Below the pieces are notes generated by a model, which was not told the DNA's origin, did not search any database, and was given only the letters and a program-made list of their open reading frames with translations. Below are positions 1,419 to 15,937 of a DNA stretch of 15,937 bases, piece by piece. The position numbers and the translations under genes are program-made. This DNA comes from a virus (taxonomy: Duplodnaviria; Heunggongvirae; Uroviricota; Caudoviricetes): IMG/VR virus record IMGVR_UViG_2529292909_000010, one strand, 5' to 3'. Positions within the stretch are counted from its first letter, which is position 1; every line of letters begins with the position of its first letter.

Positions 1419-3338
1419 TTAAAAATCAGCCTGACTCGGGATCAGTTTTTGCCAGATAACTGAAACGTATTTTGCCTGGTAACGGGCGTCATCAAGTGCA
1501 TTATGGCGCTCACCTTCGAATGGAATAGCCGTTCTGGCATCGAAGTCTATGGCTTTCCCCAGCTCAACGATTGTGCGTACATCGCGATCGTTGTAGTAAC
1601 GCCACGGGCAGGGGATCCCCTGCCGTTCGTATGAACGGCGCAAAATCGTGTTGTCGAAGTTGGCTCCATTTCCCCAGACCTGAACAAAAAATTCACCGGA
1701 GTTTTCGTCGATAAATTCCCGCAATTGTAACAGTGCATCATCTAACGGGATTTCATCGGTCATAATGGCAGATTGCGCTTCGCGTGATTGCTTAAGCCAC
1801 CATTTAATGGTGTCCCGATCAATGACTCCGCCAGCAGTTTCCAGATCGATAGTCTTACTAAATTCCGGTCCCATATCTCCGGTTTGCGGATCGAAAAATA
1901 TTGCACCTATTGAGATGATCGGGGCATCAGGATTTTTTCCCATGGTTTCAAGGTCGATCATTAGATGGTCACACGTCCTGCTGGTGGATGTGATTTCTTG
2001 ATGACCGTTCACCTTAATTGAGTGATCTGCCGTCTCGCCAGTTTCATTATCGCTATCGTGATGCTGATTGCCGCCAGTGTTCTCTTTGTGTGGATGTTCA
2101 GCGCCTTCCATTTCCTCCGGATCATCTTCCTGAACTTCAACCTGATACTCTTCATCGAATGTTTCCTGGTATGTTGCGTCGCCCATCACCGCGCCACAAT
2201 CAGGGCAGTTGCCGCCGCCGGTCTGACCGCAGGCGGTGCAGATCTTTTCCGGTTCCTGTTGCACTACTGGTTCAGGTTGTTTCGTTTCTGGCTCGTTTTG
2301 TTGCGTACTTGGGCTGTTTTGTTCCGCTTTCTGGTCGTTCTGTTCCGTTTCTTGCTGGTTCTGGTTCACAGAATCGCGGGTCTGGATCCCATTAACCCAT
2401 TTCGGATCATTCGGGTCGCTAATCCCTTCAACAAATTCACCACGTGATACTGCAAGCAGTTCATCGGCGTCAGGCTGGCTGATATTGGCTGCCTGCATAA
2501 TTTTGTTTACTTCGTCAGCGGTAACTTTTACTGACCCTGGTTGTGCGGTCGTGTCAGATGCACCAGTATTTTGTTGTGAACCTGAGTATGTACCGTTTTT
2601 GCGGGCGAAATATTCTTCTTTCGTGATTTCAGTAGCCCCAGCAGACAGCGCCTTATCCAGACCAGAAAGTTTGTTTGCGCGACCGTATTTTTCGCCATCC
2701 TTGTCGGTGAAGAGGAAGTAGAACGGCCCCTCACGTTCTACAGATGGTTCGACTTCCACTTTGCATTCGGTTTTTTCGTTGTCTGGAATTGCCGTTTCCA
2801 CTGCATCAGTTTCTGGTACTGGCGACGAGAGAGTATCAGTTGCGCTCTGATTTGTTCCTTCATCTTCAAACACGCCCTTTGTAGTCAGGTATTCAGTAAT
2901 GTATTTGTTCAGTGCCACAGGGTCTTTGTGAATGTCGATCGGACGTTCACGGACAAGGCCAAAAATAGTCTGGCGGTCGTAGCGAAGGGCATCAGGCTGT
3001 TTGCGCATTGATGCCGAGATACGCTTCCAGTCTTCGCGGTCGTTGTCGATAACTTCATTTTTTGCCCAGCGATGGATGCTGCCGTCAATGTTTCCGGCAT
3101 CCACATCACCAGGCCAGAGAGCGTAGGCCAGTTCGTCATCTAGTGTTTTCCATGTCTGCTTGTATTCGCGATGAATGGCAGCAATGACCGGGTTGATTTT
3201 TCCTGTTGAATTTTCAGTGTGCTGTTGATTGGCTCTGGCGCGGGCGAGATCAACAACAGACGTGTATTTTCCGGCTTCCTTGCGTTCACCTTCGCGACGT
3301 TTTTCCAGATGCGCATCTCTGCCTGAATTTCGGGCCAT
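1419..3338 (-). CDS. Phage exonuclease with C-terminal DEDDh 3'-5' exonuclease domain (639-aa ORF; true N-terminus uncertain)
   Basis: C-terminal about 180 aa carry DEDDh-like motifs (MIDLETMG; WGNGANFD; HNALDDARYQAKY). The centre is an acidic/Gln-rich low-complexity linker containing a CxxC...CxxC zinc-ribbon-like element (CTACGQTGGGNCPDCG). No clear Shine-Dalgarno before the ATG at 3338, and the first about 200 bp overlap the upstream ORF out of frame. Confidence 0.7.
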   Translation of the reverse strand: MARNSGRDAHLEKRREGERKEAGKYTSVVDLARARANQQHTENSTGKINPVIAAIHREYKQTWKTLDDELAYALWPGDVDAGNIDGSIHRWAKNEVIDNDREDWKRISASMRKQPDALRYDRQTIFGLVRERPIDIHKDPVALNKYITEYLTTKGVFEDEGTNQSATDTLSSPVPETDAVETAIPDNEKTECKVEVEPSVEREGPFYFLFTDKDGEKYGRANKLSGLDKALSAGATEITKEEYFARKNGTYSGSQQNTGASDTTAQPGSVKVTADEVNKIMQAANISQPDADELLAVSRGEFVEGISDPNDPKWVNGIQTRDSVNQNQQETEQNDQKAEQNSPSTQQNEPETKQPEPVVQQEPEKICTACGQTGGGNCPDCGAVMGDATYQETFDEEYQVEVQEDDPEEMEGAEHPHKENTGGNQHHDSDNETGETADHSIKVNGHQEITSTSRTCDHLMIDLETMGKNPDAPIISIGAIFFDPQTGDMGPEFSKTIDLETAGGVIDRDTIKWWLKQSREAQSAIMTDEIPLDDALLQLREFIDENSGEFFVQVWGNGANFDNTILRRSYERQGIPCPWRYYNDRDVRTIVELGKAIDFDARTAIPFEGERHNALDDARYQAKYVSVIWQKLIPSQADF

Positions 3339-3889
3339 TTGGCACCAGGCTTACATTTATGCTTAACCCACCCGATGGCATGCAGCTTAAGCTCCGGATA
3401 CATAGCGTTAACTTCTGGCATTTTCATCAACGCTTCAACGATATGGCCGTCGAATGTTGCCATGTCTTCCTGCAACAATTCCTGTGCGCTAATCACCATA
3501 TCAACAGTGATGTTTTCACATGTGTCGAACTTAACCATGAGAGCGTTCTGTACTTCAGGGGCCAGCTTGTCAAAAGTGACGTTCATCAGATCGGATTCAG
3601 TCTCAACCGGGACAAAAGAAGCAGAATCCTCATCCCAGCGGTTTTCCTGCATATATTCAGCATCCCATGAATCGAGGGCAGGGCGGGGTATGCCAGGTTT
3701 ATCCTCGCAGATAATAAATTTATAAGCGCAGTCCTGAGCAGCCGGATAATGTTCCAGGAACTGCCAGTGAAATTTTGCTCGAGCACGGCGTTCGTCGCCA
3801 GCTTCAATGGCTGTGGCTACAGCCACAGCGCCTTCTTCCCTTGTTGCCAGTTCGTCAGGAATGGCGGCGCAAATAAAGACTTTACTCAT
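3140..3889 (-). CDS. Hypothetical early-left operon protein (249-aa ORF; C-terminal about 50 aa doubtful, possibly the N-terminal part of a frameshifted fusion with the exonuclease)
   Basis: Long ORF with a GAGG Shine-Dalgarno before the ATG at 3889; protein-like composition for roughly the first 195 residues; the 3' end overlaps the 639-aa ORF by 199 bp in another frame, with an A5/T5 homopolymer at 3300-3304 in the overlap. Confidence 0.55.
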   Translation of the reverse strand: MSKVFICAAIPDELATREEGAVAVATAIEAGDERRARAKFHWQFLEHYPAAQDCAYKFIICEDKPGIPRPALDSWDAEYMQENRWDEDSASFVPVETESDLMNVTFDKLAPEVQNALMVKFDTCENITVDMVISAQELLQEDMATFDGHIVEALMKMPEVNAMYPELKLHAIGWVKHKCKPGAKWPEIQAEMRIWKNVAKVNARKPENTRLLLISPAPEPINSTLKIQQEKSTRSLLPFIANTSRHGKH

Positions 3890-4359: not shown

Positions 4360-4848
4360 TATCGCGCCCTCAACAATGAGTTTTGTGATGCGGTGCCTGG
4401 TGCCTCCAGGTGACGTTAACCAGTTAACAATTAACGCCGGATACAGAGAATCCAACCATAACACTGTTTTTGGTTTTAACTGTTCCGCGTGCGCTTAGCC
4501 GCATTCACCGCATCACAAAATTCACTTTAAAAAGGGCGGCAGAGCAGTCACGGAGTAAAACTGATACCGCCAAACGTCACCAGAAAATTGATAACAGAGG
4601 GCGTTGCAGCGGGGTTGTCACTTAAGCGTATGGTCAACCTGACAACCCGGTGTCCTCAACGGGGGAAGGAATAACCCCGCCATACTTACCGCCGCGCCAT
4701 TTCGCGGATTGCCACAACCAGAAGCGCACGGTCGAAGAAATTTAACGACAAGACTTATATGCAAAGGGATCTCGCCGTGCGCTTTCGTGTTATGCCCTGA
4801 CTTTTCAGGGTAAATTAACCTGTGGAAACCTGTTTTTACTGGCGCTAA

Positions 4849-5920: not shown

Positions 5921-6244
5921 ATGAAAAAAGATAACTATTCATTCAAACGAGCTTGTGCTGTTGTCGGTGGGCAATCAGCAATGGCTAGGCTTTTAGGTGT
6001 ATCTCCTCCAAGCGTAAATCAATGGATCAAAGGTGTACGTCAGTTGCCTGCTGAGAGATGTCCTGCGATTGAACGAGCAACAAAAGGTGGTGTCCTGTGT
6101 GAAGAACTTCGTCCTGATGTTGATTGGACATACTTACGACGCTCGTCATGTTATTCGCAGAATATGTCGATGAAGCAACCAAATGACGAAAACGATCATA
6201 CCCGAAGCATCAAGAGGCAAATGATTCATGAAAATCAAACATGA
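5921..6244 (+). CDS. Cro-like HTH regulator (YdaS-like, about 107 aa)
   Basis: First gene after the PR-like promoter; GGAG Shine-Dalgarno before the ATG at 5921; HTH-like segment (QSAMARLLGVSPPSVNQWIKG) resembling Rac YdaS (recollection). Confidence 0.7.
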   Translation: MKKDNYSFKRACAVVGGQSAMARLLGVSPPSVNQWIKGVRQLPAERCPAIERATKGGVLCEELRPDVDWTYLRRSSCYSQNMSMKQPNDENDHTRSIKRQMIHENQT

Positions 6245-6653
6245 GCACATCCGCATGGCGATGAATGCCTGGGCATATCCTGATGGTGAGAAAGTTCCAG
6301 CAGCTGGAATAACCCAGGCTTATTTTGAGTTGGGTATGACGTTCCCAGAACTGTATGACGACAGCCATCCGGAAGCCCTGGCTCGCAATACCCAGAAAAT
6401 TTTCCGCTGGGTAGAGAAAGACACCCCTGATGCAGTTGAAAAAATTCAGGCGTTGTTACCAGCGATCGAAAAGGCAATGCCACCTTTGCTGGTGGCCAGA
6501 ATGCGCAGCCACAGTTCAGCTTATTTTCGGGAGCTGGTGGAGACGCGGGAACGACTGGTGAGAGACGCTGATGATTTTGTCGCAGTGGCGATCGCTGGTT
6601 TCAACCAGATGAATCGTGGTGGCCCTGCAGGAAATATTGTGGCTGTGCATTGA
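6228..6653 (+). CDS. YdaT-like protein (141 aa), second gene of the rightward early operon
   Basis: Start overlaps the cro-like stop by 17 nt with an AAGAGG Shine-Dalgarno; size and position match YdaT of Rac-type prophages (recollection). Confidence 0.6.
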   Translation: MKIKHEHIRMAMNAWAYPDGEKVPAAGITQAYFELGMTFPELYDDSHPEALARNTQKIFRWVEKDTPDAVEKIQALLPAIEKAMPPLLVARMRSHSSAYFRELVETRERLVRDADDFVAVAIAGFNQMNRGGPAGNIVAVH

Positions 6654-6724
6654 CTCGCAATATTCATACCGGATCACTTCCGGCAATTTGTGAGTAAAAA
6701 GATTCGGTATCAAAAGAGGTGAGT

Positions 6725-7795
6725 ATGGCTAACGCCTGGCTCAGATTATGGCATGACATGCCAAATGACCCTAAGTGGCGAACAATTGCCAGGGTGTCAG
6801 GGCAGCCAATTGCAACAGTGATGGCAGTGTATATCCACCTCCTGGTGAGCGCGTCACGAAATGTCACGCGAGGTCACATTGATGTCACGACAGAAGATTT
6901 GGCAAGTGCGCTCGACGTGACAGAAGAGGTAATTGATTCAATTTTGCAGACGATGCAGGGGCGGGTACTTGATGGTGATTTAATCACTGGATGGGAAAAA
7001 CGCCAGGTGCTTAAAGAGGACAACGGCAATATTTCGCAAACCGCAAAATCTCCTGCAGAGCGCAAGAGGGCGCAGCGAGAGAGGGAAAGAAAGCGGGAAC
7101 AAAATGGCGATTGTCACGGCGCGTCACGAAATGTCACGCACATGTCACGACGAGTCACGACAGATAAAGATACAGATAAAGATACAGATCAAGAAGATCA
7201 AAACACTATGGTCCATGGCGTAAAAAACGCCACGAACCAGGCAGGGGATGTTCAGACCGTCAATCTTGGTCAGCCAGCAGGCACGACACCGGAAGCCGAT
7301 TCAGCGTATGCGCTGAAAGCCGATTCGGGCGCTGTGCAGCAGGTGATGACCGCAAGGCCGGAGCAATCACACCAACTGCAGCAGCCCGAAGCCGATTCTG
7401 CCATTCAGCGGGAAGCCGATCGGGTAGTCCCGGAAAACACCGGGCAGTCTGTGGGACGAGTGGATTATCCGGATGTGTTCGAACAGGTCTGGCGGGAGTA
7501 CCCGTTGCGTGCTGGGGCAAACCCGAAGAAATCCGCTTTCAGTGCCTGGAAGGCCAGATTACGCGAGGGGGTGCCACCAGAGGCCATGCTGGATGGCGTG
7601 AGGCGTTACGCAAGATACTTGGCGGCTACCGGGAAAACGGGAACGGAATTTGTTCAGCGAGCGACGACGTTTTTTGGACCGGACCGGAATTTTGAAAACC
7701 CCTGGTTGCTCCCGGTAAGCGGCACGAACAACCAGCGTTGTGTTAATCATATTTCTGAACCGGACACCGAAATTCCGCCGGGATTCAGAGGGTAA
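6725..7795 (+). CDS. Replication initiator (YdaU/O-like) with embedded iteron origin
   Basis: ATG at 6725 with AAGAGGTGAG Shine-Dalgarno (ORF track starts at a GTG at 6719); N-terminal region resembles YdaU-type phage replication proteins (recollection); two GTCACG iteron clusters and an AT-rich repeat lie inside the gene, as in lambda O. Confidence 0.65.
   Translation: MANAWLRLWHDMPNDPKWRTIARVSGQPIATVMAVYIHLLVSASRNVTRGHIDVTTEDLASALDVTEEVIDSILQTMQGRVLDGDLITGWEKRQVLKEDNGNISQTAKSPAERKRAQRERERKREQNGDCHGASRNVTHMSRRVTTDKDTDKDTDQEDQNTMVHGVKNATNQAGDVQTVNLGQPAGTTPEADSAYALKADSGAVQQVMTARPEQSHQLQQPEADSAIQREADRVVPENTGQSVGRVDYPDVFEQVWREYPLRAGANPKKSAFSAWKARLREGVPPEAMLDGVRRYARYLAATGKTGTEFVQRATTFFGPDRNFENPWLLPVSGTNNQRCVNHISEPDTEIPPGFRG
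6851..6890. repeat. Iteron cluster 1: four GTCAC(G/A) repeats at about 10-bp phasing
   Basis: GTCACG at 6853, 6863 and 6884, GTCACA at 6873; the 19-bp string gcgtcacgaaatgtcacgc is identical to 7121-7139. Confidence 0.6.
7111..7210. repeat. Iteron cluster 2 (five GTCACG at 10-11-bp phasing) plus adjacent AT-rich tandem repeat; putative replication origin
   Basis: GTCACG at 7113, 7123, 7133, 7144 and 7154, followed by cagataaagatacagataaagatacagatcaagaagatc (12-bp unit repeated twice, AT-rich). Confidence 0.6.
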
Positions 7796-7832
7796 CAGAT
7801 TTCAGGTCATGGGGTAATTTTCAGGAGGGCTT

Positions 7833-8255
7833 GTGGCAAAAGTTTTTACACAAGAAGAGCGGGAAAAAATTAAAGGGCAGGTTGTTGAACTCGTACGCCA
7901 GAGTGGGCGCGAGACGTTACGACAACTGGAAACTAAAACTGGGGCAACAAGATATCTGATGAGCGTTCTGGCCAGAGAGCTGGTTGCCAGTGGCGATGTA
8001 TACAATTCTGGCTACGGGTTATTCCCGTCTGAACAGGCTCGTAAAGACTGGCAAAATGCCCGCAAAAAACTCTCAAGGGCAAAGCTGAAGAAACCATCTG
8101 CGGTTGATCCGGACCTTATCTGGTCATTACCAGATGGCGAAATACGCCGCTACGACAGGCGTCTGAACATAATCTGTCTCGAGTGCCGGAAGAGCGAAGT
8201 TATGCAGCGCGTACTGGCGTTTTATCAGGGGAATTTTGAGGAGGTGGTGCGGTGA
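7833..8255 (+). CDS. Hypothetical protein (140 aa), replication-module associated
   Basis: GTG start with strong CAGGAGGG Shine-Dalgarno; lies where a helicase loader would be expected but is too small and shows no Walker motifs. Confidence 0.55.
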   Translation: MAKVFTQEEREKIKGQVVELVRQSGRETLRQLETKTGATRYLMSVLARELVASGDVYNSGYGLFPSEQARKDWQNARKKLSRAKLKKPSAVDPDLIWSLPDGEIRRYDRRLNIICLECRKSEVMQRVLAFYQGNFEEVVR

Positions 8256-8506
8256 GTGAATCAAAATGCCAGGTTAATGGCAACAAGATAGAACCATGTG
8301 CAGCACTGGTAAAGTCCCTTGAGCATGATGCTGAATACACGATGCGAAAAGGTCTGCTGATATACAAAATCTGGAATGAGAGTTTAACTCGCGGTCCTGA
8401 TTTTGTGATGTTGCGTTCCGGTGAATTTTCTAAATTACCAGTTCGGGTTTCATTTTGTCCGTTCTGTGGTGAAAGTCTGAAAACGTGGGAGAACAGAAAT
8501 GAATGA
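8252..8506 (+). CDS. Hypothetical small protein with Cys cluster (84 aa)
   Basis: GTG start overlapping the previous stop (GTGA); C-terminal CPFCGES motif plus upstream cysteines suggest a zinc-ribbon. Confidence 0.45.
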   Translation: MSESKCQVNGNKIEPCAALVKSLEHDAEYTMRKGLLIYKIWNESLTRGPDFVMLRSGEFSKLPVRVSFCPFCGESLKTWENRNE

Positions 8507-8810
8507 AATTAAAGAAATACCAGTAGTACGTGATGAATATGGCTGCTGGACGCATCCTGAATATGAAAAATTCTGTGACGGTCGGGAATATATTTCAACG
8601 GAAGAGTTTAACGCCTGGATGGAGGAAAATAATCTTCAATACGTCCTCTGCTTCAGAGATGAAGGATGTGCTGACCTTGATGCGTGTGATGCTGATATTT
8701 CTGCATGGGAACCGGAACGACCAGAGGGCAATGGATGGTTTATTGGTTCAATACATGACACCGAAGATGGCCCGGTTTGTGTATGGCTGAGAAATAAGGC
8801 CGAAGCATAA
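8499..8810 (+). CDS. Hypothetical acidic protein (103 aa)
   Basis: ATG overlaps the previous stop (translational coupling); protein-like composition. Confidence 0.5.
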   Translation: MNEIKEIPVVRDEYGCWTHPEYEKFCDGREYISTEEFNAWMEENNLQYVLCFRDEGCADLDACDADISAWEPERPEGNGWFIGSIHDTEDGPVCVWLRNKAEA

Positions 8811-9115
8811 AGGCTATAAACCGACTAACAACTAAATACTGAAGATTTAAATCAGAAACGATTTTTATTAAATCCTTAACCGGAGGGATTCTGCACCCTC
8901 AGAACATCAGGAGGCCGTCTGAAAGGGCGGAACAGATAATGCTTACGTTGAAACATTTTATCGACATACCAACATGGTTAGCCGTCATTGCTTTTGTTAA
9001 AATACACATCCACTTTTCTGTGCAATGTTTAACCACTGGTCATATCAAATGGCATTCATGCGAACCATGATATAGAATCATGGCTTGAGAGAGTCGATGA
9101 AAGCGCAACTATGGT

Positions 9116-9694
9116 ATGAGAGACATTGATGTAAGAAAGGCTGTGCATGCCAAGATTCTGAGAGATCATCATAAAGATCCTGACACCCTAATCATTGATG
9201 AGTTTACGATGAATCTAGGGGCTAGCAGAGCTGATATAGCAGTGATCAATGGGCTTATACATGGTTATGAGTTGAAGAGCAAGAGTGATAACTTGCTCAG
9301 ATTACCAGCGCAGGTGCAACATTACTCATCAGTGATGGATAAAGTAACTTTGGTTGTCTCTGATTGCCATCTTTATGATGCTTTAAGCATAGTTCCATCA
9401 TGGTGGGGGATAAAGCAAGTTACGCAAGGTGCACGGCAAGGTATCCATTTAAAAACAATTCGAACTAGCAAGTTGAATCCACAAGTGGACAAACTTTCCT
9501 TAACAATGCTTCTTTGGAAAGATGAATTGCTTTCCCTATTAAGTGATGTAGGGGAGCTACAGAATTTGAAAAATAAACCTAAACGCGTCTTATGGTCAAA
9601 ACTCGCCAATAGTATGGATGTTGGCGAGCTTCGTGAAGCTGTTCGAGTTAAACTTAAAGCCCGTAAAGAGTGGCGAGTTGCTCAACAACCTTAG
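9116..9694 (+). CDS. Putative PD-(D/E)xK-fold nuclease-like protein (192 aa), accessory cargo gene
   Basis: AT-rich ORF; motif arrangement E(IIDEF)...D(RADIAV)...E-x-K(GYELKS) fits a restriction-endonuclease-like active site; may belong to the family usually annotated 'sce7726 family' (unverified recollection). Confidence 0.6.
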   Translation: MRDIDVRKAVHAKILRDHHKDPDTLIIDEFTMNLGASRADIAVINGLIHGYELKSKSDNLLRLPAQVQHYSSVMDKVTLVVSDCHLYDALSIVPSWWGIKQVTQGARQGIHLKTIRTSKLNPQVDKLSLTMLLWKDELLSLLSDVGELQNLKNKPKRVLWSKLANSMDVGELREAVRVKLKARKEWRVAQQP

Positions 9695-10751
9695 TTATGT
9701 GATGGTTTTGCCCAATCCTACGCCATACCTCTGGGCTACCAAATTTATAGTTACCAGAGGGATTGGCTTTGTAGGCTTGATACTCGTTTGCATAATATTC
9801 TATGTCTCTATCTCCCGCACAGAATGTAGGCCCTGAATATTCTCGATGAGCAAGAATATCCTCACTATGTTTACCATATTGTTCATAACCAAAGCGATTA
9901 GCTACTCTTCCTCGAAATACCCAAAAGTCATTATCTCCAGAGTATCTGACGCTGGCAGATACGCTAGGGAATCGCGTCGAAAGCCTATTAAAGTCGGGGT
10001 GCTGTACTCCATAATCACTATAAATCACATTTCTGGCAAGTTCTTTTCTATTCATTAAACTCTGCCATAAAATCCACTCGATTCGAGGTTGAGAATATAG
10101 ACCAACAGAAATATCACTGAGATCTGTAGGAAATGAACCCCCAGAAAGAATCACTTTTCTGTATTCATTGAGGTGCGCCAGATTGTTTATCAATCCCATT
10201 GCCAAAGTATATAGTTCGCCGGAATTAATTTTATCCTCGGTTAACTCATCTCTTAAGTCAATAATTATATCAATATTTGATAAAGGAATTCCCAGATGAT
10301 TAATGTAATGCGTTATTAATTGTGGGTTAACCAGATCTAACGTGGTTAATCTCAAGCATATTTCATTCTGCATTAATTCATCAATCGCTCTTTTATAGTT
10401 AGATGGGCGAGTTGGTGAACTGACAGGAATAACTCTTATCCCCATATCTCTAACTTGATTAACCGCATTTATTATAGGGTAATGATCTTCAGGAGAAATA
10501 AAATGCTCTTCAATTAATAATCCATCAATATAAACACCTTGCATATCTGAGCAAGATTTTGAGACTTTCTTTCCGAACTCTATAAGAGTCTCGTTATAAC
10601 TCTTTAAGGCAATACCTGAATCAGGGTCAATTGGCACTGGTTCAATTTCGAGTAATGGCAAAATTTTTGATTTCTTTTCAATGGATAGCTGCGATAAAGC
10701 TGATAACTCAGAACGTTTCGCTTTCAGAATAGGAATATATGAAATTGTCAT
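9654..10751 (-). CDS. Large uncharacterised partner protein (365 aa), possibly P4 'beta'-family-like
   Basis: AT-rich ORF convergent with the 192-aa gene, 3' ends overlapping by 41 bp; no motif I can assign; the family assignment is an unverified recollection. Confidence 0.6.
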   Translation of the reverse strand: MTISYIPILKAKRSELSALSQLSIEKKSKILPLLEIEPVPIDPDSGIALKSYNETLIEFGKKVSKSCSDMQGVYIDGLLIEEHFISPEDHYPIINAVNQVRDMGIRVIPVSSPTRPSNYKRAIDELMQNEICLRLTTLDLVNPQLITHYINHLGIPLSNIDIIIDLRDELTEDKINSGELYTLAMGLINNLAHLNEYRKVILSGGSFPTDLSDISVGLYSQPRIEWILWQSLMNRKELARNVIYSDYGVQHPDFNRLSTRFPSVSASVRYSGDNDFWVFRGRVANRFGYEQYGKHSEDILAHREYSGPTFCAGDRDIEYYANEYQAYKANPSGNYKFGSPEVWRRIGQNHHITKVVEQLATLYGL

Positions 10752-11103
10752 GTTAATACCTTATACAGAATCAATTAACAATTAATGGTTCTTCGGACAT
10801 TGAAATTTATATCGCAAAAATTGGCAAACTCTCCTCGACTACTCACTTGTGGGTATCCTGGCGTAAAAGGAATGACTTGGCAATACCCGGTGTGATCATA
10901 AGTCATTGAAAATGATCATTTTTATCAGTCTTTCTTCCATGATGAATGCTAATGCCATTTGATTTGTTGAGGTGAAAACTGTTAAAAATCAAAACGATGT
11001 AATTGAAATGAACGTTCGGTAGCATTCACGCTTTAAATGTTTCTTTTGTGCTGATTGGATGAATTTGGGTCACTTCTGATGAGAGATGTTGCAGGAAAAG
11101 AAG

Positions 11104-11132
11104 TTGGCATTGATCTATTGGATAGTTAGAAT
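11104..11132 (+). promoter_or_regulatory. Putative hok mRNA promoter
   Basis: TTGGCA (11104-11109), 17-nt spacer, TAGAAT (11127-11132), just upstream of a leader (gcgggtgcttgaggctatctgcctcaggc) that resembles the remembered 5' end of plasmid R1 hok mRNA. Confidence 0.4.
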
Positions 11133-11308
11133 TGCTGCGGGTGCTTGAGGCTATCTGCCTCAGGCATGAACACCAAAAGGCAGATAGAGAAAAGCCCCAG
11201 TTAACATTACGCGTCCGGCAAGACGCTTAACATTAATCTGAGGCCAATTTCATGCTTTGCACATGTAGGTTAGCCTCTTACGTGCCGAAAGGCAAGGAGA
11301 AGCAGGCT

Positions 11309-11464
11309 ATGAAGCAGCAAAAGGCGATGTTAATCGCCCTGATCGTCATCTGTTTAACCGTCATAGTGACGGCACTGGTAACGAGGAAAGACCTCTGCGA
11401 GGTACGAATCCGAACCGGCCAGACGGAGGTCGCTGTCTTCACAGCTTACGAACCTGAGGAGTAA
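11309..11464 (+). CDS. hokD: Hok/Gef-family type I toxin (51 aa)
   Basis: MKQQKAMLIALIVICLTVIVTALVTRKDLCEVRIRTGQTEVAVFTAYEPEE: single transmembrane helix plus conserved C-terminal region typical of Hok/Gef; AGGAG Shine-Dalgarno before the ATG at 11309; the upstream leader resembles the R1 hok leader. The hokD symbol is from memory of the K-12 sequence and could be another hok paralogue. Confidence 0.85.
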   Translation: MKQQKAMLIALIVICLTVIVTALVTRKDLCEVRIRTGQTEVAVFTAYEPEE

Positions 11465-11476
11465 GAGACCAGGCGG

Positions 11477-11486
11477 GGGAGAATCC
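11477..11486. repeat. Target-site duplication, left copy (GGGAGAATCC)
   Basis: The identical 10-mer directly abuts both ends of the IS element. Confidence 0.55.
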
Positions 11487-12826
11487 CATAAGCGCTAACT
11501 TAAGGGTTGTGGTATTACGCCTGATATGATTTAACGTGCCGATGAATTACTCTCACGATAACTGGTCAGCAATTCTGGCCCATATTGGTAAGCCCGAAGA
11601 ACTGGATACTTCGGCACGTAATGCCGGGGCTCTAACCCGCCGCCGCGAAATTCGTGATGCTGCAACTCTGCTACGTCTGGGGCTGGCTTACGGCCCCGGG
11701 GGAGTGTCATTACGTGAAGTCACTGCATGGGCGTCAGCTCCATGACGTTGCAACATTATCTGACGTGGCTCTCCTGAAGCGGCTGCGGAATGCCGCCGAC
11801 TGGTTTGGCATACTTGCCGCACAAACACTTGCTGTACGCGCCGCAGTTACGGGTTGTACAAGCGGAAAGAGATTGCGTCTTGTCGATGGAACAGCAATCA
11901 GTGCGCCCGGGGGCGGCAGCGCTGAATGGCGACTACATATGGGATATGATCCTCATACCTGTCAGTTCACTGATTTTGAGCTAACCGACAGCAGAGACGC
12001 TGAACGGCTGGACCGATTTGCGCAAACGGCAGACGAGATACGCATTGCTGACCGGGGATTCGGTTCGCGTCCCGAATGTATCCGCTCACTTGCTTTTGGA
12101 GAAGCTGATTATATCGTCCGGGTTCACTGGCGAGGATTGCGCTGGTTAACTGCAGAAGGAATGCGCTTTGACATGATGGGTTTTCTGCGCGGGCTGGATT
12201 GCGGTAAGAACGGTGAAACCACTGTAATGATAGGCAATTCAGGTAATAAAAAAGCCGGAGCTCCCTTTCCGGCACGTCTCATTGCCGTATCACTTCCTCC
12301 CGAAAAAGCATTAATCAGTAAAACCCGACTGCTCAGCGAGAATCGTCGAAAAGGACGAGTAGTTCAGGCGGAAACGCTGGAAGCAGCGGGCCATGTGCTA
12401 TTGCTAACATCATTACCGGAAGATGAATATTCAGCAGAGCAAGTGGCTGATTGTTACCGTCTGCGATGGCAAATTGAACTGGCTTTTAAGCGGCTCAAAA
12501 GTTTGCTGCACCTGGATGCTTTGCGTGCAAAGGAACCTGAACTCGCGAAAGCGTGGATATTTGCTAATCTACTCGCCGCATTTTTAATTGACGACATAAT
12601 CCAGCCATCGCTGGATTTCCCCCCCAGAAGTGCCGGATCCGAAAAGAAGAACTAACTCGTTGTGGAGAATAACAAAAATGGTCATCTGGAGCTTACAGGT
12701 GGCCATTCGTGGGACAGTATCCCTGACAGCCTACAAAACGCAATTGAAGAACGCGAGGCATCGTCTTAACGAGGCACCGAGGCGTCGCATTCTTCAGATG
12801 GTTCAACCCTTAAGTTAGCGCTTATG
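11487..12826 (+). mobile_element. IS186-like insertion sequence (IS4 family), about 1340 bp
   Basis: Terminal inverted repeats cataagcgctaacttaagggttg (11487-11509) and its reverse complement (12804-12826); internal transposase matches the IS186 InsL sequence as I remember it; flanked by a 10-bp direct repeat in GC-rich target DNA. Confidence 0.8.
11542..12655 (+). pseudogene. IS186 transposase, apparently frameshifted (N-terminal about 67 aa in one frame, remaining about 330 aa in another)
   Basis: ORF 11536..11745 encodes the canonical N-terminus (MNYSHDNWSAILAHIGKPEEL...) then terminates; ORF 11654..12655 continues the protein (...QLHDVATLSDVALLKRL...) in a different frame; the junction is near gggcgtcagctcc (about 11731-11743), where one extra base relative to the remembered sequence would account for the shift. 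Confidence 0.5.
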
Positions 12827-12836
12827 GGGAGAATCC
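12827..12836. repeat. Target-site duplication, right copy (GGGAGAATCC)
   Basis: Identical to 11477-11486. Confidence 0.55.
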
Positions 12837-12883
12837 CTCGCCACCTCTGATGTGTCAGGCATCCTCAACGCACCCGCACTTAA

Positions 12884-12908
12884 CCCGCTTCGGCGGGTTT
12901 TGTTTTTT
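12884..12908 (+). terminator. Rho-independent terminator, probably the original hok transcript terminator displaced by the IS186 insertion
   Basis: GC-rich hairpin cccgc-ttcg-gcggg followed by ttttgtttttt. Confidence 0.6.
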
Positions 12909-12980
12909 CCTAGCATTCTGGTTTACAATTCGCACGCCAGCCTGAACAACTGGCACCTGCTGCGCCAGCAGAGACAACCG

Positions 12981-13259
12981 ATGGCGCACGATACCAAATT
13001 ACACAATTCTGATGATTCTGCCGTCTTTGCCAGCAGGCACGGGCGGCGTTCCCGCACTTTCAAATCTGACTGGTTCCAGCATCCCCCATGCACTGAAGAA
13101 CAGGCCGAGTGGCTAATTCAGTGCTACCGCAGACACGGATACGAGATTAAGAAAGCCCTCAGCCTCGATTATCGTCACTGGATAATCTCCGTCAGGCTTC
13201 CTTACTCCGAGCGCCCACCGCGTCCGTCCCGCACATTCCAGCAACGCATCTGGAGGTAA
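12981..13259 (+). CDS. Hypothetical small protein (about 92 aa from the ATG at 12981)
   Basis: The ORF extends upstream to 12852 but would then span the terminator; the ATG at 12981 is the first plausible start; sits where rem lies in Qin-type prophages (recollection). Confidence 0.4.
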   Translation: MAHDTKLHNSDDSAVFASRHGRRSRTFKSDWFQHPPCTEEQAEWLIQCYRRHGYEIKKALSLDYRHWIISVRLPYSERPPRPSRTFQQRIWR

Positions 13260-13260
13260 C

Positions 13261-14310
13261 GTGCGGGTATTACTTCGACCTGTTCTGGTACCGGAACTCG
13301 GGCTGGTGATCGTTAAGCCGGGCCGTGAATCCATGCCGGTATTCCACAATACCCGGGTACTGGTGGAGCCGGAACCGAAAAGCATGCGTAATCTGCCGTC
13401 CGGGGTTGTTCCTGCCGTTCACCAGCCGCTAGTGGAAGACAAAACATTGCTGCCGTTTTTCAGTAACGCACGGGTGATTAGTGCTGCTGGTGGTGCTGGT
13501 GCATTGTCTGACTGGCTGTTGCGCCATATTAAATCCTGCCAGTGGCCACACGGCGATTATCATCACAGCGAAACCGTCATTCACCGTTATGGTACCGGCG
13601 CAATGGTGTTGTGCTGGCACTGCGACAACCAGCTGCGTGACCAGACATCCGAATCACTCGAGCAACTTGCTTATCAAAACCTGTCAGCATGGATGATTGA
13701 CGTCATCGGTCACGCAATAAGCGGTACGCAGGAGCGTGAATTATCTTTGGCTGAATTATCCTGGTGGGCGGTCCGCAATCAGGTGGCGGACGCGCTACCG
13801 GAAGCGGTATTACGTCGTTCGCTGGGGTTGCGTGCGGAAAAAATCCGCTCAATGTACCGTGAAAGCGACATCGTACCGGGAGAGCAGACCGCCACCAGCA
13901 TACTGAAACAGCGCACAAAAAATCTTGCGCCGCTGCCTCACGCCCACCAGCAACAGAACCCACCACAGGAAAAGACGGTGGTCAGCATTGCCGTTGATCC
14001 TGAGTCTCCGGAATCTTTCATGAAACGACCTAAACGTCGCCGCTGGGTTAACGAGAAATACACACGCTGGGTGAAGACACAGCCGTGTGCGTGTTGTAGT
14101 AAGCCAGCCGACGATCCCCATCACCTGATTGGTCATGGTCAGGGCGGAATGGGAACAAAATCCCACGATATTTTCACGCTACCGCTGTGTCGGGAGCATC
14201 ACAACGAGCTTCATGCGGATCCGCTGGCGTTCGAAGAAAAGCATGGTTCTCAGGTTGATTTAATTTTTCGTTTTCTTGATCACGCCTTTGCAACTGGCGT
14301 GCTTGGGTAA
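13261..14310 (+). CDS. DUF968/YdfU-like protein with C-terminal Cys/His (HNH-like) cluster (349 aa)
   Basis: GTG start with GGAGG Shine-Dalgarno; C-terminal motif QPCACCSKPADDPHHLIGHG...LPLCREHHNELH; resembles Qin YdfU (recollection). Confidence 0.65.
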   Translation: MRVLLRPVLVPELGLVIVKPGRESMPVFHNTRVLVEPEPKSMRNLPSGVVPAVHQPLVEDKTLLPFFSNARVISAAGGAGALSDWLLRHIKSCQWPHGDYHHSETVIHRYGTGAMVLCWHCDNQLRDQTSESLEQLAYQNLSAWMIDVIGHAISGTQERELSLAELSWWAVRNQVADALPEAVLRRSLGLRAEKIRSMYRESDIVPGEQTATSILKQRTKNLAPLPHAHQQQNPPQEKTVVSIAVDPESPESFMKRPKRRRWVNEKYTRWVKTQPCACCSKPADDPHHLIGHGQGGMGTKSHDIFTLPLCREHHNELHADPLAFEEKHGSQVDLIFRFLDHAFATGVLG

Positions 14311-14322
14311 AAGAGGTGACTG

Positions 14323-14697
14323 ATGCTCATAGATTTGGTTTTACCTTACCCGCCGACGGTGAACACTTACTGGCGACGCCGTGGCAGCACATATTTTATC
14401 TCGGAGGAGGGAAAGCGTTATCGCCGGGCTGTGGCGCTTATTGTTCGCCAGCAGCGGCTGAAATTAAGCCTGTCCGGAAGGCTGGCGATAAAGGTGATTG
14501 CAGAGCCACCGGATAAGCGTCGTCGCGACCTGGACAATATCCTGAAAGCACCGCTGGATGCGCTGACGCACGCGGGGTTGTTAATGGACGATGAGCAGTT
14601 TGATGAAATCAATATTGTACGTGGAAAGCCAGTATCTGGTGGACGTCTGGGGGTGAAGATTTACCCCATAATGCTTGAAGGGCAGGTCAAAAAATGA
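14323..14697 (+). CDS. rusA: RusA-family Holliday junction resolvase (124 aa)
   Basis: Conserved-looking PDKRRRDLDNILKAPLDALT segment and overall length typical of RusA; AAGAGGTGA Shine-Dalgarno; stop overlaps the start of the antiterminator gene (ATGA). Confidence 0.85.
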   Translation: MLIDLVLPYPPTVNTYWRRRGSTYFISEEGKRYRRAVALIVRQQRLKLSLSGRLAIKVIAEPPDKRRRDLDNILKAPLDALTHAGLLMDDEQFDEINIVRGKPVSGGRLGVKIYPIMLEGQVKK

Positions 14698-15497
14698 AAC
14701 TGGAAGATTTACCGAAATACTACTCCCCAAAATCCCCTGGCCTGACCGATGCATCGGCCTCAACGTCAAAAGATGCGCTGAGTATCACTGATGTGATGGC
14801 CGCGCAGGGCATGACACAGAATCGGGCTGAGATGGGGTTTTCTGCGTTCCTTGGGAAAATGGGCATTAGTATGAATGACAGAGAGCGGGCAACAGAATTG
14901 CTGACAGAATATGCACTCAGTCGGTGTGATCGCGTGGCGGCGTTAAGAAAACTCCCGGCAGAAATAAAACCGGCAGTAATGCGTATTATGGCTTCGTATG
15001 CGTTTGAAGATTATGCCCGTAGCGCGGCGAGCAAAAAACAGTGCCCCTGCTGTCACGGAAAAAAATTTATTGAAAGCGAGGTTTTTACAAACAAGATCCA
15101 GTATCCGGATGGTAAGCCGCCAGTGTGGGCAAAGTGCACAAAAGGCGTGTATCCGTCTTACTGGGAGGAATGGAAAAAAGTCAGGGAGGTGGTAAAAGTT
15201 GCCTGTCCGGAGTGTGGAGGGAAGGGAGAGGTATCCACTGCCTGTAAAGATTGTCGTGGGCGCGGTGTTGCCATTCATCGTGAAGAGTCGGAAAAACAGG
15301 GTGTGCCGGTTTTCAGAAACTGTCAGCGTTGTGGTGGGCGTGGCTATGAAAGATTACCTTCAACGGAGGCATTTAATGCCATATGTAATGTAACCGATGC
15401 CATATCTCTTGATACATGGAAAAAACAGTTAAACGTTTTTACGATACGCTGGTGGTGCAGTTTGATATTGAAGAAGCATGGGCAGAACAACAACTGA
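14694..15497 (+). CDS. Late-gene antiterminator, Q-like (QuuQ-type, 267 aa)
   Basis: Several CxxC pairs (CPCCHGKK; CPECGGKG; CKDCRGRG; CQRCGGRG); position immediately after rusA and before a promoter/terminator-like intergenic region; resembles Qin QuuQ (recollection). Confidence 0.65.
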   Translation: MKLEDLPKYYSPKSPGLTDASASTSKDALSITDVMAAQGMTQNRAEMGFSAFLGKMGISMNDRERATELLTEYALSRCDRVAALRKLPAEIKPAVMRIMASYAFEDYARSAASKKQCPCCHGKKFIESEVFTNKIQYPDGKPPVWAKCTKGVYPSYWEEWKKVREVVKVACPECGGKGEVSTACKDCRGRGVAIHREESEKQGVPVFRNCQRCGGRGYERLPSTEAFNAICNVTDAISLDTWKKQLNVFTIRWWCSLILKKHGQNNN

Positions 15498-15519
15498 AAA
15501 AGGTGACCAGATAGCTTTG

Positions 15520-15618
15520 TTGATTTTTCCCGAATCTGTGGTAAATTTGCCCTAACGATGGGCGTTTTATGCCTGACGTTAGAAGATTTTTACACCCGTC
15601 GCCAGGCGGGTTTTTTTA
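15520..15618 (+). promoter_or_regulatory. Putative late promoter (PR'-like) with downstream intrinsic terminator (tR'-like)
   Basis: TTGATT (15520-15525), 16-nt spacer, TAAATT (15542-15547); downstream hairpin cccgtc-gcca-ggcggg (15595-15610) followed by a T7 run (15611-15617). Confidence 0.3.
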
Positions 15619-15739
15619 TGACTGAAATCACGCCAGTACAGTAAACGCGCTGGTGGCGGTGAATACCGGTCTTTCAGCTTGCTGGCTTTTTTGACAAGAG
15701 TTATTGGTGTGTCACGTTAACCGGAAAAGGGAAAAAGAC

Positions 15740-15937
15740 ATGCTGAAACAGCAGGATATGACCGAAACCGCCAGAGTGGTGTTTAATGAATTAAGTGCCA
15801 CCGCACCGGCGACAGTCGGGGAGATTGCACAGAATACTTACCTCTCACGCGAACGCTGCCAGTTAATACTGACCCAGCTTGTTATGGCGGGTCTGGCAGA
15901 CTATCAGTGCGGTTGTTACAGACGCCTTCAGTCCTGA
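15740..15937 (+). CDS. Hypothetical small protein (about 65 aa from the ATG at 15740)
   Basis: ORF ends at the window edge with TGA; the ORF-track start at 15704 is a TTG; the ATG at 15740 is preceded by a purine-rich stretch. Confidence 0.35.
   Translation: MLKQQDMTETARVVFNELSATAPATVGEIAQNTYLSRERCQLILTQLVMAGLADYQCGCYRRLQS

Follow-up and report, generated by a model that had tools for sequence, protein, structure and literature searches.

The 15,937-nucleotide (nt) stretch of Caudoviricetes DNA held as IMG/VR record IMGVR_UViG_2529292909_000010 (the window; coordinates refer to it unless another genome is named) covers the early part of a lambdoid prophage of the Rac/Qin type. To the right of its replication genes lies a block with a convergent pair of genes, encoding a cII-like protein and a Beta-family protein, a hok/sok toxin-antitoxin locus and a copy of insertion sequence (IS) 186 (Table 1). 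A reading of this DNA from its letters alone (the sequence-only reading) had taken positions 8811–12838 as a single accessory island, with a possible role in defense or addiction. All three components are indeed present, as judged by their open reading frames (ORFs), by Pfam and Rfam matches, and by inverted repeats and a target duplication, and phage-type genes resume at about 12981 as that reading had it, at the start of a 92-amino-acid (aa) ORF. However, based on comparisons with related prophages, we are confident that three layers, differing in origin and age, make up the block, which is a mosaic and not one island. The earlier observation is thus partly confirmed, and the interpretation placed on it is partly supported.

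A variable slot between the DUF977 gene and the hok promoter

We searched for relatives with positions 6200–15900, sampled down the whole ranking and fetched nine divergent relatives, each of which was aligned to the window. All nine have a common backbone of YdaT, replisome organizer and DUF977 genes, then a slot, then hokD, the 92-aa ORF and genes for DUF968, RusA and the antiterminator Q. On the left, eight of the relatives lose homology to the window at 8230–8237, where the DUF977 gene ends, and the ninth (L007) loses it at 7965. On the right, homology resumes exactly at 11127, within the −10 region of the hok promoter, in all nine; from there it runs through hok to the IS junction at 11487, resumes at 12827, reaches the 3′ end of hok at about 12907 and continues into DUF968, RusA and Q. 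The true variable slot is the interval 8238–11126, with the DUF977 gene to its left and the hok promoter to its right. The nine are drawn from many prophages recovered in the same search that have these flanking genes with different content between them.

The nine relatives have conserved flanks and interchangeable content, as is characteristic of prophage defense hotspots. Their slots contain AbiH with an uncharacterized protein; a DUF5677 protein; two hypothetical proteins; nothing annotated; a four-gene ABC-three-component (ABC-3C) locus; QueH with KwaA and KwaB; a RelA/SpoT-domain protein; SMEK with a methyltransferase; and NUDIX with HAD proteins. PADLOC models matched six of the eight occupied slots: AbiH, PDC-M68B (the ABC-3C locus), a complete Kiwa system (KwaA and KwaB), PDC-S33 (RelA/SpoT), the Aga-type N-terminal domain (SMEK) and PDC-S07 (NUDIX), although for four of the six the match is to a candidate (PDC) or partial domain model only. 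The slot is enriched in defense genes and is a defense-rich hotspot in this small, non-random sample of eight occupied slots. The contents with no PADLOC match are the two hypothetical proteins (320 and 333 aa; 2428–4407 of L006) and the DUF5677 protein (2468–3493 of L005), and by virtue of their position these could be defense candidates.

In the window, the slot has two parts. The sequence-only reading had started the block at 8811 and had considered the ORFs up to 8810 as part of the replication module. There is no junction at 8811, and since the left breakpoint in the relatives lies at 8230–8237, the two small ORFs at 8252–8810 are accessory as well. They are absent from the nine backbone relatives and were found in 232 genomes; in some of these, a series of small phage ORFs of an ordinary kind follows them where the window has the gene pair. 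Neither has a match in Pfam, PADLOC or NCBIfam. A second junction, at about 8930, marks the start of pair-specific DNA. The 64 bp preceding it are about 94% conserved in >2000 Escherichia coli genomes, as well as in several Stx and other phages; elsewhere this segment precedes a DUF7167 gene, and here it is the left edge of the pair-specific DNA. Its predicted RNA structure is unremarkable (z = −0.87) and it has no Rfam match.

The guanine plus cytosine (GC) content of the slot differs from that of its surroundings. It is 0.378 for the pair module (0.30–0.36 at third codon positions, GC3) and 0.433 for the small-ORF segment (GC3 0.34–0.38), versus 0.51–0.52 for the replication genes, the hok cassette (0.514), the IS (0.513) and the right-hand backbone. 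This composition agrees with a foreign origin of the slot content. Two checks had been proposed for the island. In the alignment against relatives, the gene-pair stretch is replaced by other genes and hok/sok is backbone; in the composition profile, the pair is shifted, but neither the hok cassette nor the IS departs from the backbone in GC content.

We found no description of this lambdoid DUF977–hok slot in the literature. A close precedent is relBE-hokD (relF) of the K-12 prophage Qin, which has the same backbone of hokD, rem and ydfU (DUF968) and has relBE in the same slot, directly upstream of hok (PMC6379469). In Qin, however, the cargo has truncated the hok leader; since relBE occupies the slot and the leader is truncated, homology starts only at about 11295 of the window. 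The window shows the reverse: nothing is missing from its leader, mok and Sok regions, and it is the 3′ end of the locus that is damaged. The slot also resembles the hotspots of P2, P4 and other prophages (Rousset 2022), which have conserved flanks, one to four interchangeable cargo genes and many known or candidate defense systems, and in one P2-like prophage the same beta/cII cassette separates gpA from the portal gene. The slot in the window differs from these in being of the Rac/Qin lambdoid type, situated after the replication genes and before hok and the nin-like genes.

Two further observations concern the right-hand side of the slot. In one relative (L009, NZ_CP092449), a 41-bp relic of a hok 5′ end (1621–1661 of that locus; 90% identity to window 11127–11167) is located between the QueH and Kiwa genes, upstream of the complete hok cassette, which suggests that the hok 5′ boundary has been reused during cargo exchange. 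There is also a second, smaller variable site at 12908–12963, just after the hok terminator, where relatives have rem, or a hypothetical gene with a helix-turn-helix gene, before the 92-aa ORF.

The hok/sok cassette and its IS186 copy

The gene hokD is present in all nine relatives, mostly encoding an identical protein, and the 5′ segment starting at 11127 is 90–98% conserved. Based on this presence and on the sharp common boundary at 11127, hok/sok belongs to the backbone and is not cargo, contrary to the sequence-only reading, which had itself named conserved backbone genes in related prophages as evidence against the island. The sok/hok leader gave a full-length match to Rfam RF01794 (11139–11314; 119.8 bits, the gathering score being 59), and its Hok protein is also encoded, without change, by an IS-free relative (WP_000813254).

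The IS is 99.5% identical to IS186A of K-12 and 99.8% identical to a plasmid copy of IS421, with a single 1-nt gap. An extra G near 11733 causes a +1 frameshift in the transposase gene, and in place of an intact 370-aa DDE transposase ORF there are two pieces of 69 and 333 aa (11536–11745 and 11654–12655). The insertion site is a GC-rich hairpin, GGCGGGGGAGAATCCCTCGCC, 22 nt past the hok stop codon. An IS-free relative has a single copy of the target sequence GGGAGAATCC, and none of 5426 complete E. coli genomes has the IS at this site of the prophage; the IS186 copy is a secondary insertion specific to the strain.

The same hairpin has been entered by IS186 or IS421 more than once. Homologous hairpins of K-12 hokC and of two plasmid hok loci also contain IS186/IS421, and since each of these insertions has a different target duplication, they represent a recurrent hot spot and not shared ancestry. 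The two plasmid loci (L019, plasmid pEC129_1; L018, plasmid pSF26_102-2) were picked for the similarity of their IS421 copies alone, and both copies proved to lie directly downstream of hok genes, which underlines how strongly IS186/IS421 target the post-hok hairpin. The insertion at K-12 hokC/gef is the closest parallel (one at hokE has also been reported): there, about 20 nt beyond the hok stop codon, a GC-rich hairpin contains IS186, which cuts off fbi (PMC3562002); the alignment of this locus to the window extends from the −10 box to the IS junction, with 76% identity. The window insertion nonetheless is an independent event, with the duplication GGGAGAATCC versus GGAGTGATCC in hokC, the opposite IS orientation relative to hok, and a location in a hokD-type prophage locus, which has no IS in any of the 5426 genomes.

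Closure of the messenger by pairing of the tac and fbi elements is typical of hok mRNAs. In the established model, the fbi pairing keeps the stable full-length mRNA inert until its 3′ end is processed. When the IS and one copy of the target duplication were removed in silico, we obtained a 424-nt hok transcript identical to that of the closest IS-free relative (L001, NZ_CP077646, from an E. coli strain of sequence type 866, in a prophage adjoining potC; 98.8–99% identity over 6222–15892). In the minimum-free-energy fold of this IS-free reconstruction, and in that alone, nt 1–12 (GGGUGCUUGAGG) pair with nt 375–387 (CCUCAACGCACCC). In the window, the 1340-bp IS186 and one duplication copy interrupt what would be a contiguous tac–fbi mRNA with its terminator; due to the position of the IS in the post-hok hairpin, fbi and the terminator are 1.3 kb from the hok ORF.

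Several observations are consistent with hok being a still active, Sok-controlled toxin despite IS186, comparable to K-12 gef/sof, which could aid lysis at induction or kill at transcription shut-off. The promoter, tac, mok, hok and Sok regions are all intact, Hok is unchanged relative to IS-free relatives, the K-12 gef mRNA is still transcribed, into IS186, and is regulated by the antisense sof RNA (PMC3562002), and the prophage locus hokW-sokW aids release of phage Sp5 (PMC8621323). However, the displaced fbi is the very element that the model requires to keep the full-length mRNA inert, IS-free chromosomal hok loci failed in both post-segregational killing and rifampicin activation (summarized in bioRxiv 10.1101/2025.08.07.668861), and the recurrent insertions in this hairpin are conventionally taken as inactivating, IS186 downstream of K-12 hokC/gef being thought to disrupt fbi and mRNA processing (PMC3562002). 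On balance, we consider continued activity of this kind somewhat unlikely. Judging by the hok mRNA model, the IS-bearing copy is probably crippled as a delayed-killing device, and hok-mediated exclusion or addiction is doubtful here because the insertion removes fbi and the terminator from the hok transcript.

The gene order in the remainder of the window is that of a Rac/Qin-type prophage (Table 1). From 5′ to 3′ it has genes for integrase and a 3′–5′ exonuclease, DicF, repressor/Cro-like genes, and genes for YdaT, the replisome organizer and DUF977; to the right of the block are the 92-aa ORF, DUF968, RusA and antiterminator Q. The presence of DicF is expected in the immunity region of such a prophage. 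Relative to the closest relative, the window has 1-nt deletions at 3300 (T5 versus T6), which splits the exonuclease gene, and at 15420 (A6 versus A7), which alters the C-terminus of Q. Both are in homopolymer runs and may represent prophage decay or assembly error.

Table 1. Features of the window, with the block and its surroundings
Feature	Coordinates	Strand	Remarks
Integrase	1–1119	−	
3′–5′ exonuclease gene (split)	1419–3338 and 3140–3889		
DicF antisense small RNA	4534–4585	−	Rfam RF00039, full length, 76.7 bits
Replisome organizer	6719–7795		
DUF977 gene	7833–8255		
Semi-conserved accessory sub-module	8238–8930	+	Two small ORFs and 64-bp junction
Small ORF 1	8252–8506	+	84 aa
Small ORF 2	8499–8810	+	103 aa
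64-bp junction	8867–8930		Widespread in E. coli prophages
Pair-specific cargo module	8931–11126		beta/cII-type two-gene cassette and flanking non-coding DNA
cII-like sce7726-family protein	9116–9694	+	192 aa; PD-(D/E)XK nuclease fold
Beta-family protein	9654–10751	−	365 aa; TIM-barrel-like (predicted); homologue of P4 beta and PD-lambda-2C
Promoter-like site for hok mRNA	11104–11132	+	TTGGCA-17-TAGAAT; best regional match, 10/12; aligns with TATAAT upstream of K-12 hokC
hok/sok cassette, 5′ part	11127–11486	+	mRNA start ~11139 with tac element GGGUGCUUGAGG
Sok antisense	~11185–11262	−	By alignment to annotated K-12 sokC
mok	11252–11464	+	In frame with hok, like annotated K-12 mokC/hokC
hok	11309–11464	+	Pfam HOK_GEF PF01848, E = 1.2e-23
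Target-site duplication, left copy	11477–11486		GGGAGAATCC, 10 bp
IS186/IS421 copy (IS4 family)	11487–12826	+	1340 bp; 23-bp inverted repeats CATAAGCGCTAACTTAAGGGTTG; DDE_Tnp_1, E = 1.3e-26
Target-site duplication, right copy	12827–12836		GGGAGAATCC, 10 bp
Displaced 3′ end of hok mRNA	12837–12907	+	fbi element CCUCAACGCACCC at ~12864–12876; conserved in all relatives
Intrinsic terminator of hok mRNA	12882–12899 and T-run	+	Terminator scan
92-aa phage ORF	12981–13259		
DUF968 gene	13261–14310		

A beta/cII-type gene pair without gop

The pair module is present at full length, with at least 99% identity, in 93 of the 5426 genomes; in the deposited phage Rac-SA53 it is interrupted by IS1. Its two genes are convergent and their 3′ ends overlap by 41 bp. 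The 365-aa product, labeled "beta family protein" in RefSeq, matched Pfam PF14350 (E = 3.8e-52; 178 bits versus a cutoff of 27) and, over residues 4–362, the PADLOC model PD-Lambda-2_C (E = 1.8e-41), with a weaker match to the P4 "beta" model (E = 2e-4); it is 23% identical to P4 beta over the full length (blastp E = 2e-8). The 192-aa product matched PADLOC "cll" (E = 2.4e-28) and NCBIfam NF033832, the sce7726 family (191.1 bits versus a cutoff of 70), and is 28% identical to P4 cII (blastp E = 6e-17). Homologues of the latter protein carry a precomputed assignment to PF26915; we found nothing relevant on PF14350 or PF26915 in the literature.

The sequence-only reading had called these genes a nuclease-like pair, a description that suits only one of them. 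The cII-like protein has the restriction-endonuclease-like alpha/beta core fold of the PD-(D/E)XK superfamily, and residues E29, D40, E52 and K54 are invariant in 39 cII-like sequences, down to 46% identity. These residues give the canonical D...ExK motif, and the protein is a putative nuclease. The Beta protein, in contrast, is predicted to be TIM-barrel-like and is not evidently a nuclease: its model is of high confidence (predicted local distance difference test score, pLDDT, of 93), and because its Foldseek matches are to generic (beta/alpha)8 barrels only, no specific activity can be assigned to it. Sequence searches of the PDB with either protein gave chance-level matches only.

Three known systems contain homologues of one or both genes. 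The P4 system gop-beta-cII ("gop_beta_cll" in DefenseFinder and PADLOC) has homologous beta (PF14350) and cII genes in the same convergent layout (P4 beta 651–1718, + strand; cII 1746–2540, − strand), with gop and beta co-directional, and is likewise situated in a hotspot of a temperate mobile element. However, the two have diverged strongly in sequence, the cII-like protein has only 192 aa compared with 264 aa in P4 cII, and the overlapping 3′ ends contrast with P4, in which a terminator separates the genes. A further difference is that the window has no gop, the gene for the P4 membrane toxin that is neutralized by beta, and nothing conserved upstream of beta. In PD-lambda-2, the second system, the beta-like component fits our protein better than does P4 beta, as judged by the PADLOC models, but its partners are a HigB-like protein and a toxic HigA-peptidase fusion, with no cII-like nuclease partner. 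Components A (HigB-like) and B (HigA-peptidase) of PD-lambda-2 had no PADLOC match among the seven ORFs in and around the block, and 8811–11126 has no further ORFs of a size suited to them. Third, the 192-aa protein is a clear member of the sce7726 family of the sce7725/sce7726 cassette (NCBIfam/TIGRFAM naming), and in the loci examined the sce7726-family protein always adjoins, convergently, a Beta_protein-family gene; the Beta protein of the window, however, matched no NCBIfam model, including sce7725, at E ≤ 0.01.

We also looked for a hidden third gene, either a gop remnant or a conserved small ORF beside beta, and found none: a tblastn search of the window with P4 Gop gave nothing better than E = 0.89, and the only ORFs upstream of beta, of 40–43 aa, are not conserved with other cassettes.

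Orthologues with 60–66% identity occur across Enterobacterales, and there is one at 36% in Paenibacillus. The prophage with the Dickeya cassette is P2-like and has it between gpA and the portal gene, adjoining HicAB; those of Photorhabdus are in prophages, between the lysis genes and terminase; and that of Paenibacillus adjoins excisionase-like genes. In all of them the same two genes are convergent and overlap at their 3′ ends, and none has any similarity to the cassette of the window outside these two genes.

These distributions bear on whether the pair might serve the prophage's own biology, for example in lysogeny regulation or as a recombination or DNA-processing nuclease in phage replication. 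The name cII derives from a lysogeny phenotype of P4. The pair is located between the replication genes and the nin/RusA recombination genes, some databases call the cII-like protein a "regulatory protein" or an "MmcB-like DNA repair protein", and the slot sometimes has ordinary small phage ORFs, all of which would fit such a role. However, the cassette moves among unrelated sites and phages (the P2 gpA–portal hotspot, the lysis–terminase junction and the Paenibacillus element), as is typical of morons and defense cargo, it is rare in its lineage (93 of 5426 genomes), it is interchangeable with bona fide defense systems such as Kiwa and AbiH, and the nonessential gop-beta-cII region of P4 gives phage resistance (PMC9122126). 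We therefore regard a role in phage biology as improbable. A defense role is plausible because relatives carry Kiwa, AbiH and PADLOC candidate-defense genes in the same slot, and the pair is genuine exchangeable cargo and a credible defense candidate.

What is known of the related systems is compatible with such a role. P4 gop-beta-cII (described by Ghisotti 1990, a reference taken from Rousset 2022) protects against lambda and P1, and in the absence of beta its Gop protein is toxic (PMC9122126); a phage accessory gene triggers the system to kill (bioRxiv 10.1101/2023.04.06.535777). The beta-like component PD-lambda-2C is required for defense but dispensable for toxin neutralization (PMC9519451; Vassallo et al., 2022).

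Origin and possible function of the block

Taken together, these comparisons separate three layers. The first is the slot; besides the two small ORFs it holds a horizontally mobile cassette of two genes with low GC content. The second, hok/sok, is a fixed backbone cassette of the prophage lineage. The third is IS186, which arrived later, in a recurrent target hairpin, after which a stable, folded-back, translationally inert full-length hok mRNA can no longer form. The most likely function of the pair would be that of a gop-less abortive-infection or other defense module, in which the putative nuclease may be the effector and Beta may either sense infection or restrain the nuclease.

It is very unlikely that 8811–12838 is instead one cargo island in which the pair, hok/sok and IS186 act jointly in defense or addiction and hok/sok excludes T4-like phages: the elements are adjacent, the pair is related to a defense system, and there is a report of T4 exclusion by hok/sok of plasmid R1 (account in PMC13047441), but comparison with the relatives has already largely refuted a joint island, hok/sok being conserved in all nine whatever the slot contains. 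The IS, with its own duplication, is strain-specific and parts hok from fbi and the terminator, and the GC content of hok and IS is at backbone level. A 2026 re-test failed to reproduce the protection that hok/sok was said to give against T4 (PMC13047441), and hok loci are not enriched near defense systems genome-wide (bioRxiv 10.1101/2025.08.07.668861). The sequence-only idea of defense survives in part, in that the replacement cargo consists mostly of defense or candidate-defense genes and the pair is homologous to two of the three gop-beta-cII genes (PMC9122126); the share assigned to hok is doubtful, and its appeal to exclusion of T4 is not supported by the re-test.

Several points weigh against our preferred interpretation of a layered block with a two-gene defense module. 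The relatives are a small, non-random sample taken from search listings; two of the eight occupied slots had no PADLOC match; and in some relatives the slot houses ordinary small phage ORFs. The published phage-resistance data are for the three-gene P4 system only (PMC9122126), and Gop, its known toxin, is absent from the window by tblastn. Two distant beta/cII loci (26–30% identity) retain a third gene in the gop position (3395–3997 of L021 and 866–1477 of L022), so the two-gene form may be incomplete. The products of these genes are mutually similar proteins of about 200 aa that start with M(R/K)LLIDTDxFCK and have no Pfam match; by eye the N-terminus (LLIDTD) is PIN-like, an assignment that lacks Pfam support and that we do not claim. 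Since the two other frameshifts of the window are in homopolymer runs, an assembly error is possible for the transposase frameshift too. Lastly, K-12 gef remains transcribed and antisense-regulated despite its IS186, as noted above, and on this basis the hok gene of the window may keep some activity.

Tentatively, and short of even confidence, we propose that the gop-less pair of the layered block is an autonomous two-gene anti-phage system, with a nuclease effector and Beta as sensor or restraint, and a core to which lineage-specific toxins may have been added, namely Gop in P4, HigBA-like proteins in PD-lambda-2 and the ~200-aa protein in the distant loci. The same proposal holds that hok/sok could be the fixed right-hand anchor of a previously undescribed Rac/Qin-type hotspot, in which the 5′ end of hok would act as the recombination boundary whenever cargo is exchanged, the 41-bp stretch between two cargo units of L009 being a relic of it.

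All components of the block are of known kinds, and the hok–IS186 part repeats a pattern known from K-12; the discovery value is only in the gop-less beta/cII cassette and in the slot itself. The comparison with relatives separates co-location from function, by showing which part is an exchangeable slot, which a toxin-antitoxin locus of the backbone and which a late IS. Further defense candidates of E. coli prophages can conveniently be sought in the DUF977–hok slot; of the eight slots with content that were sampled, two hold genes without a known family. The cassette, for its part, is compact, at about 2.2 kb, and bears on whether the core of gop-beta-cII and PD-lambda-2 may defend alone, with the putative nuclease as effector.

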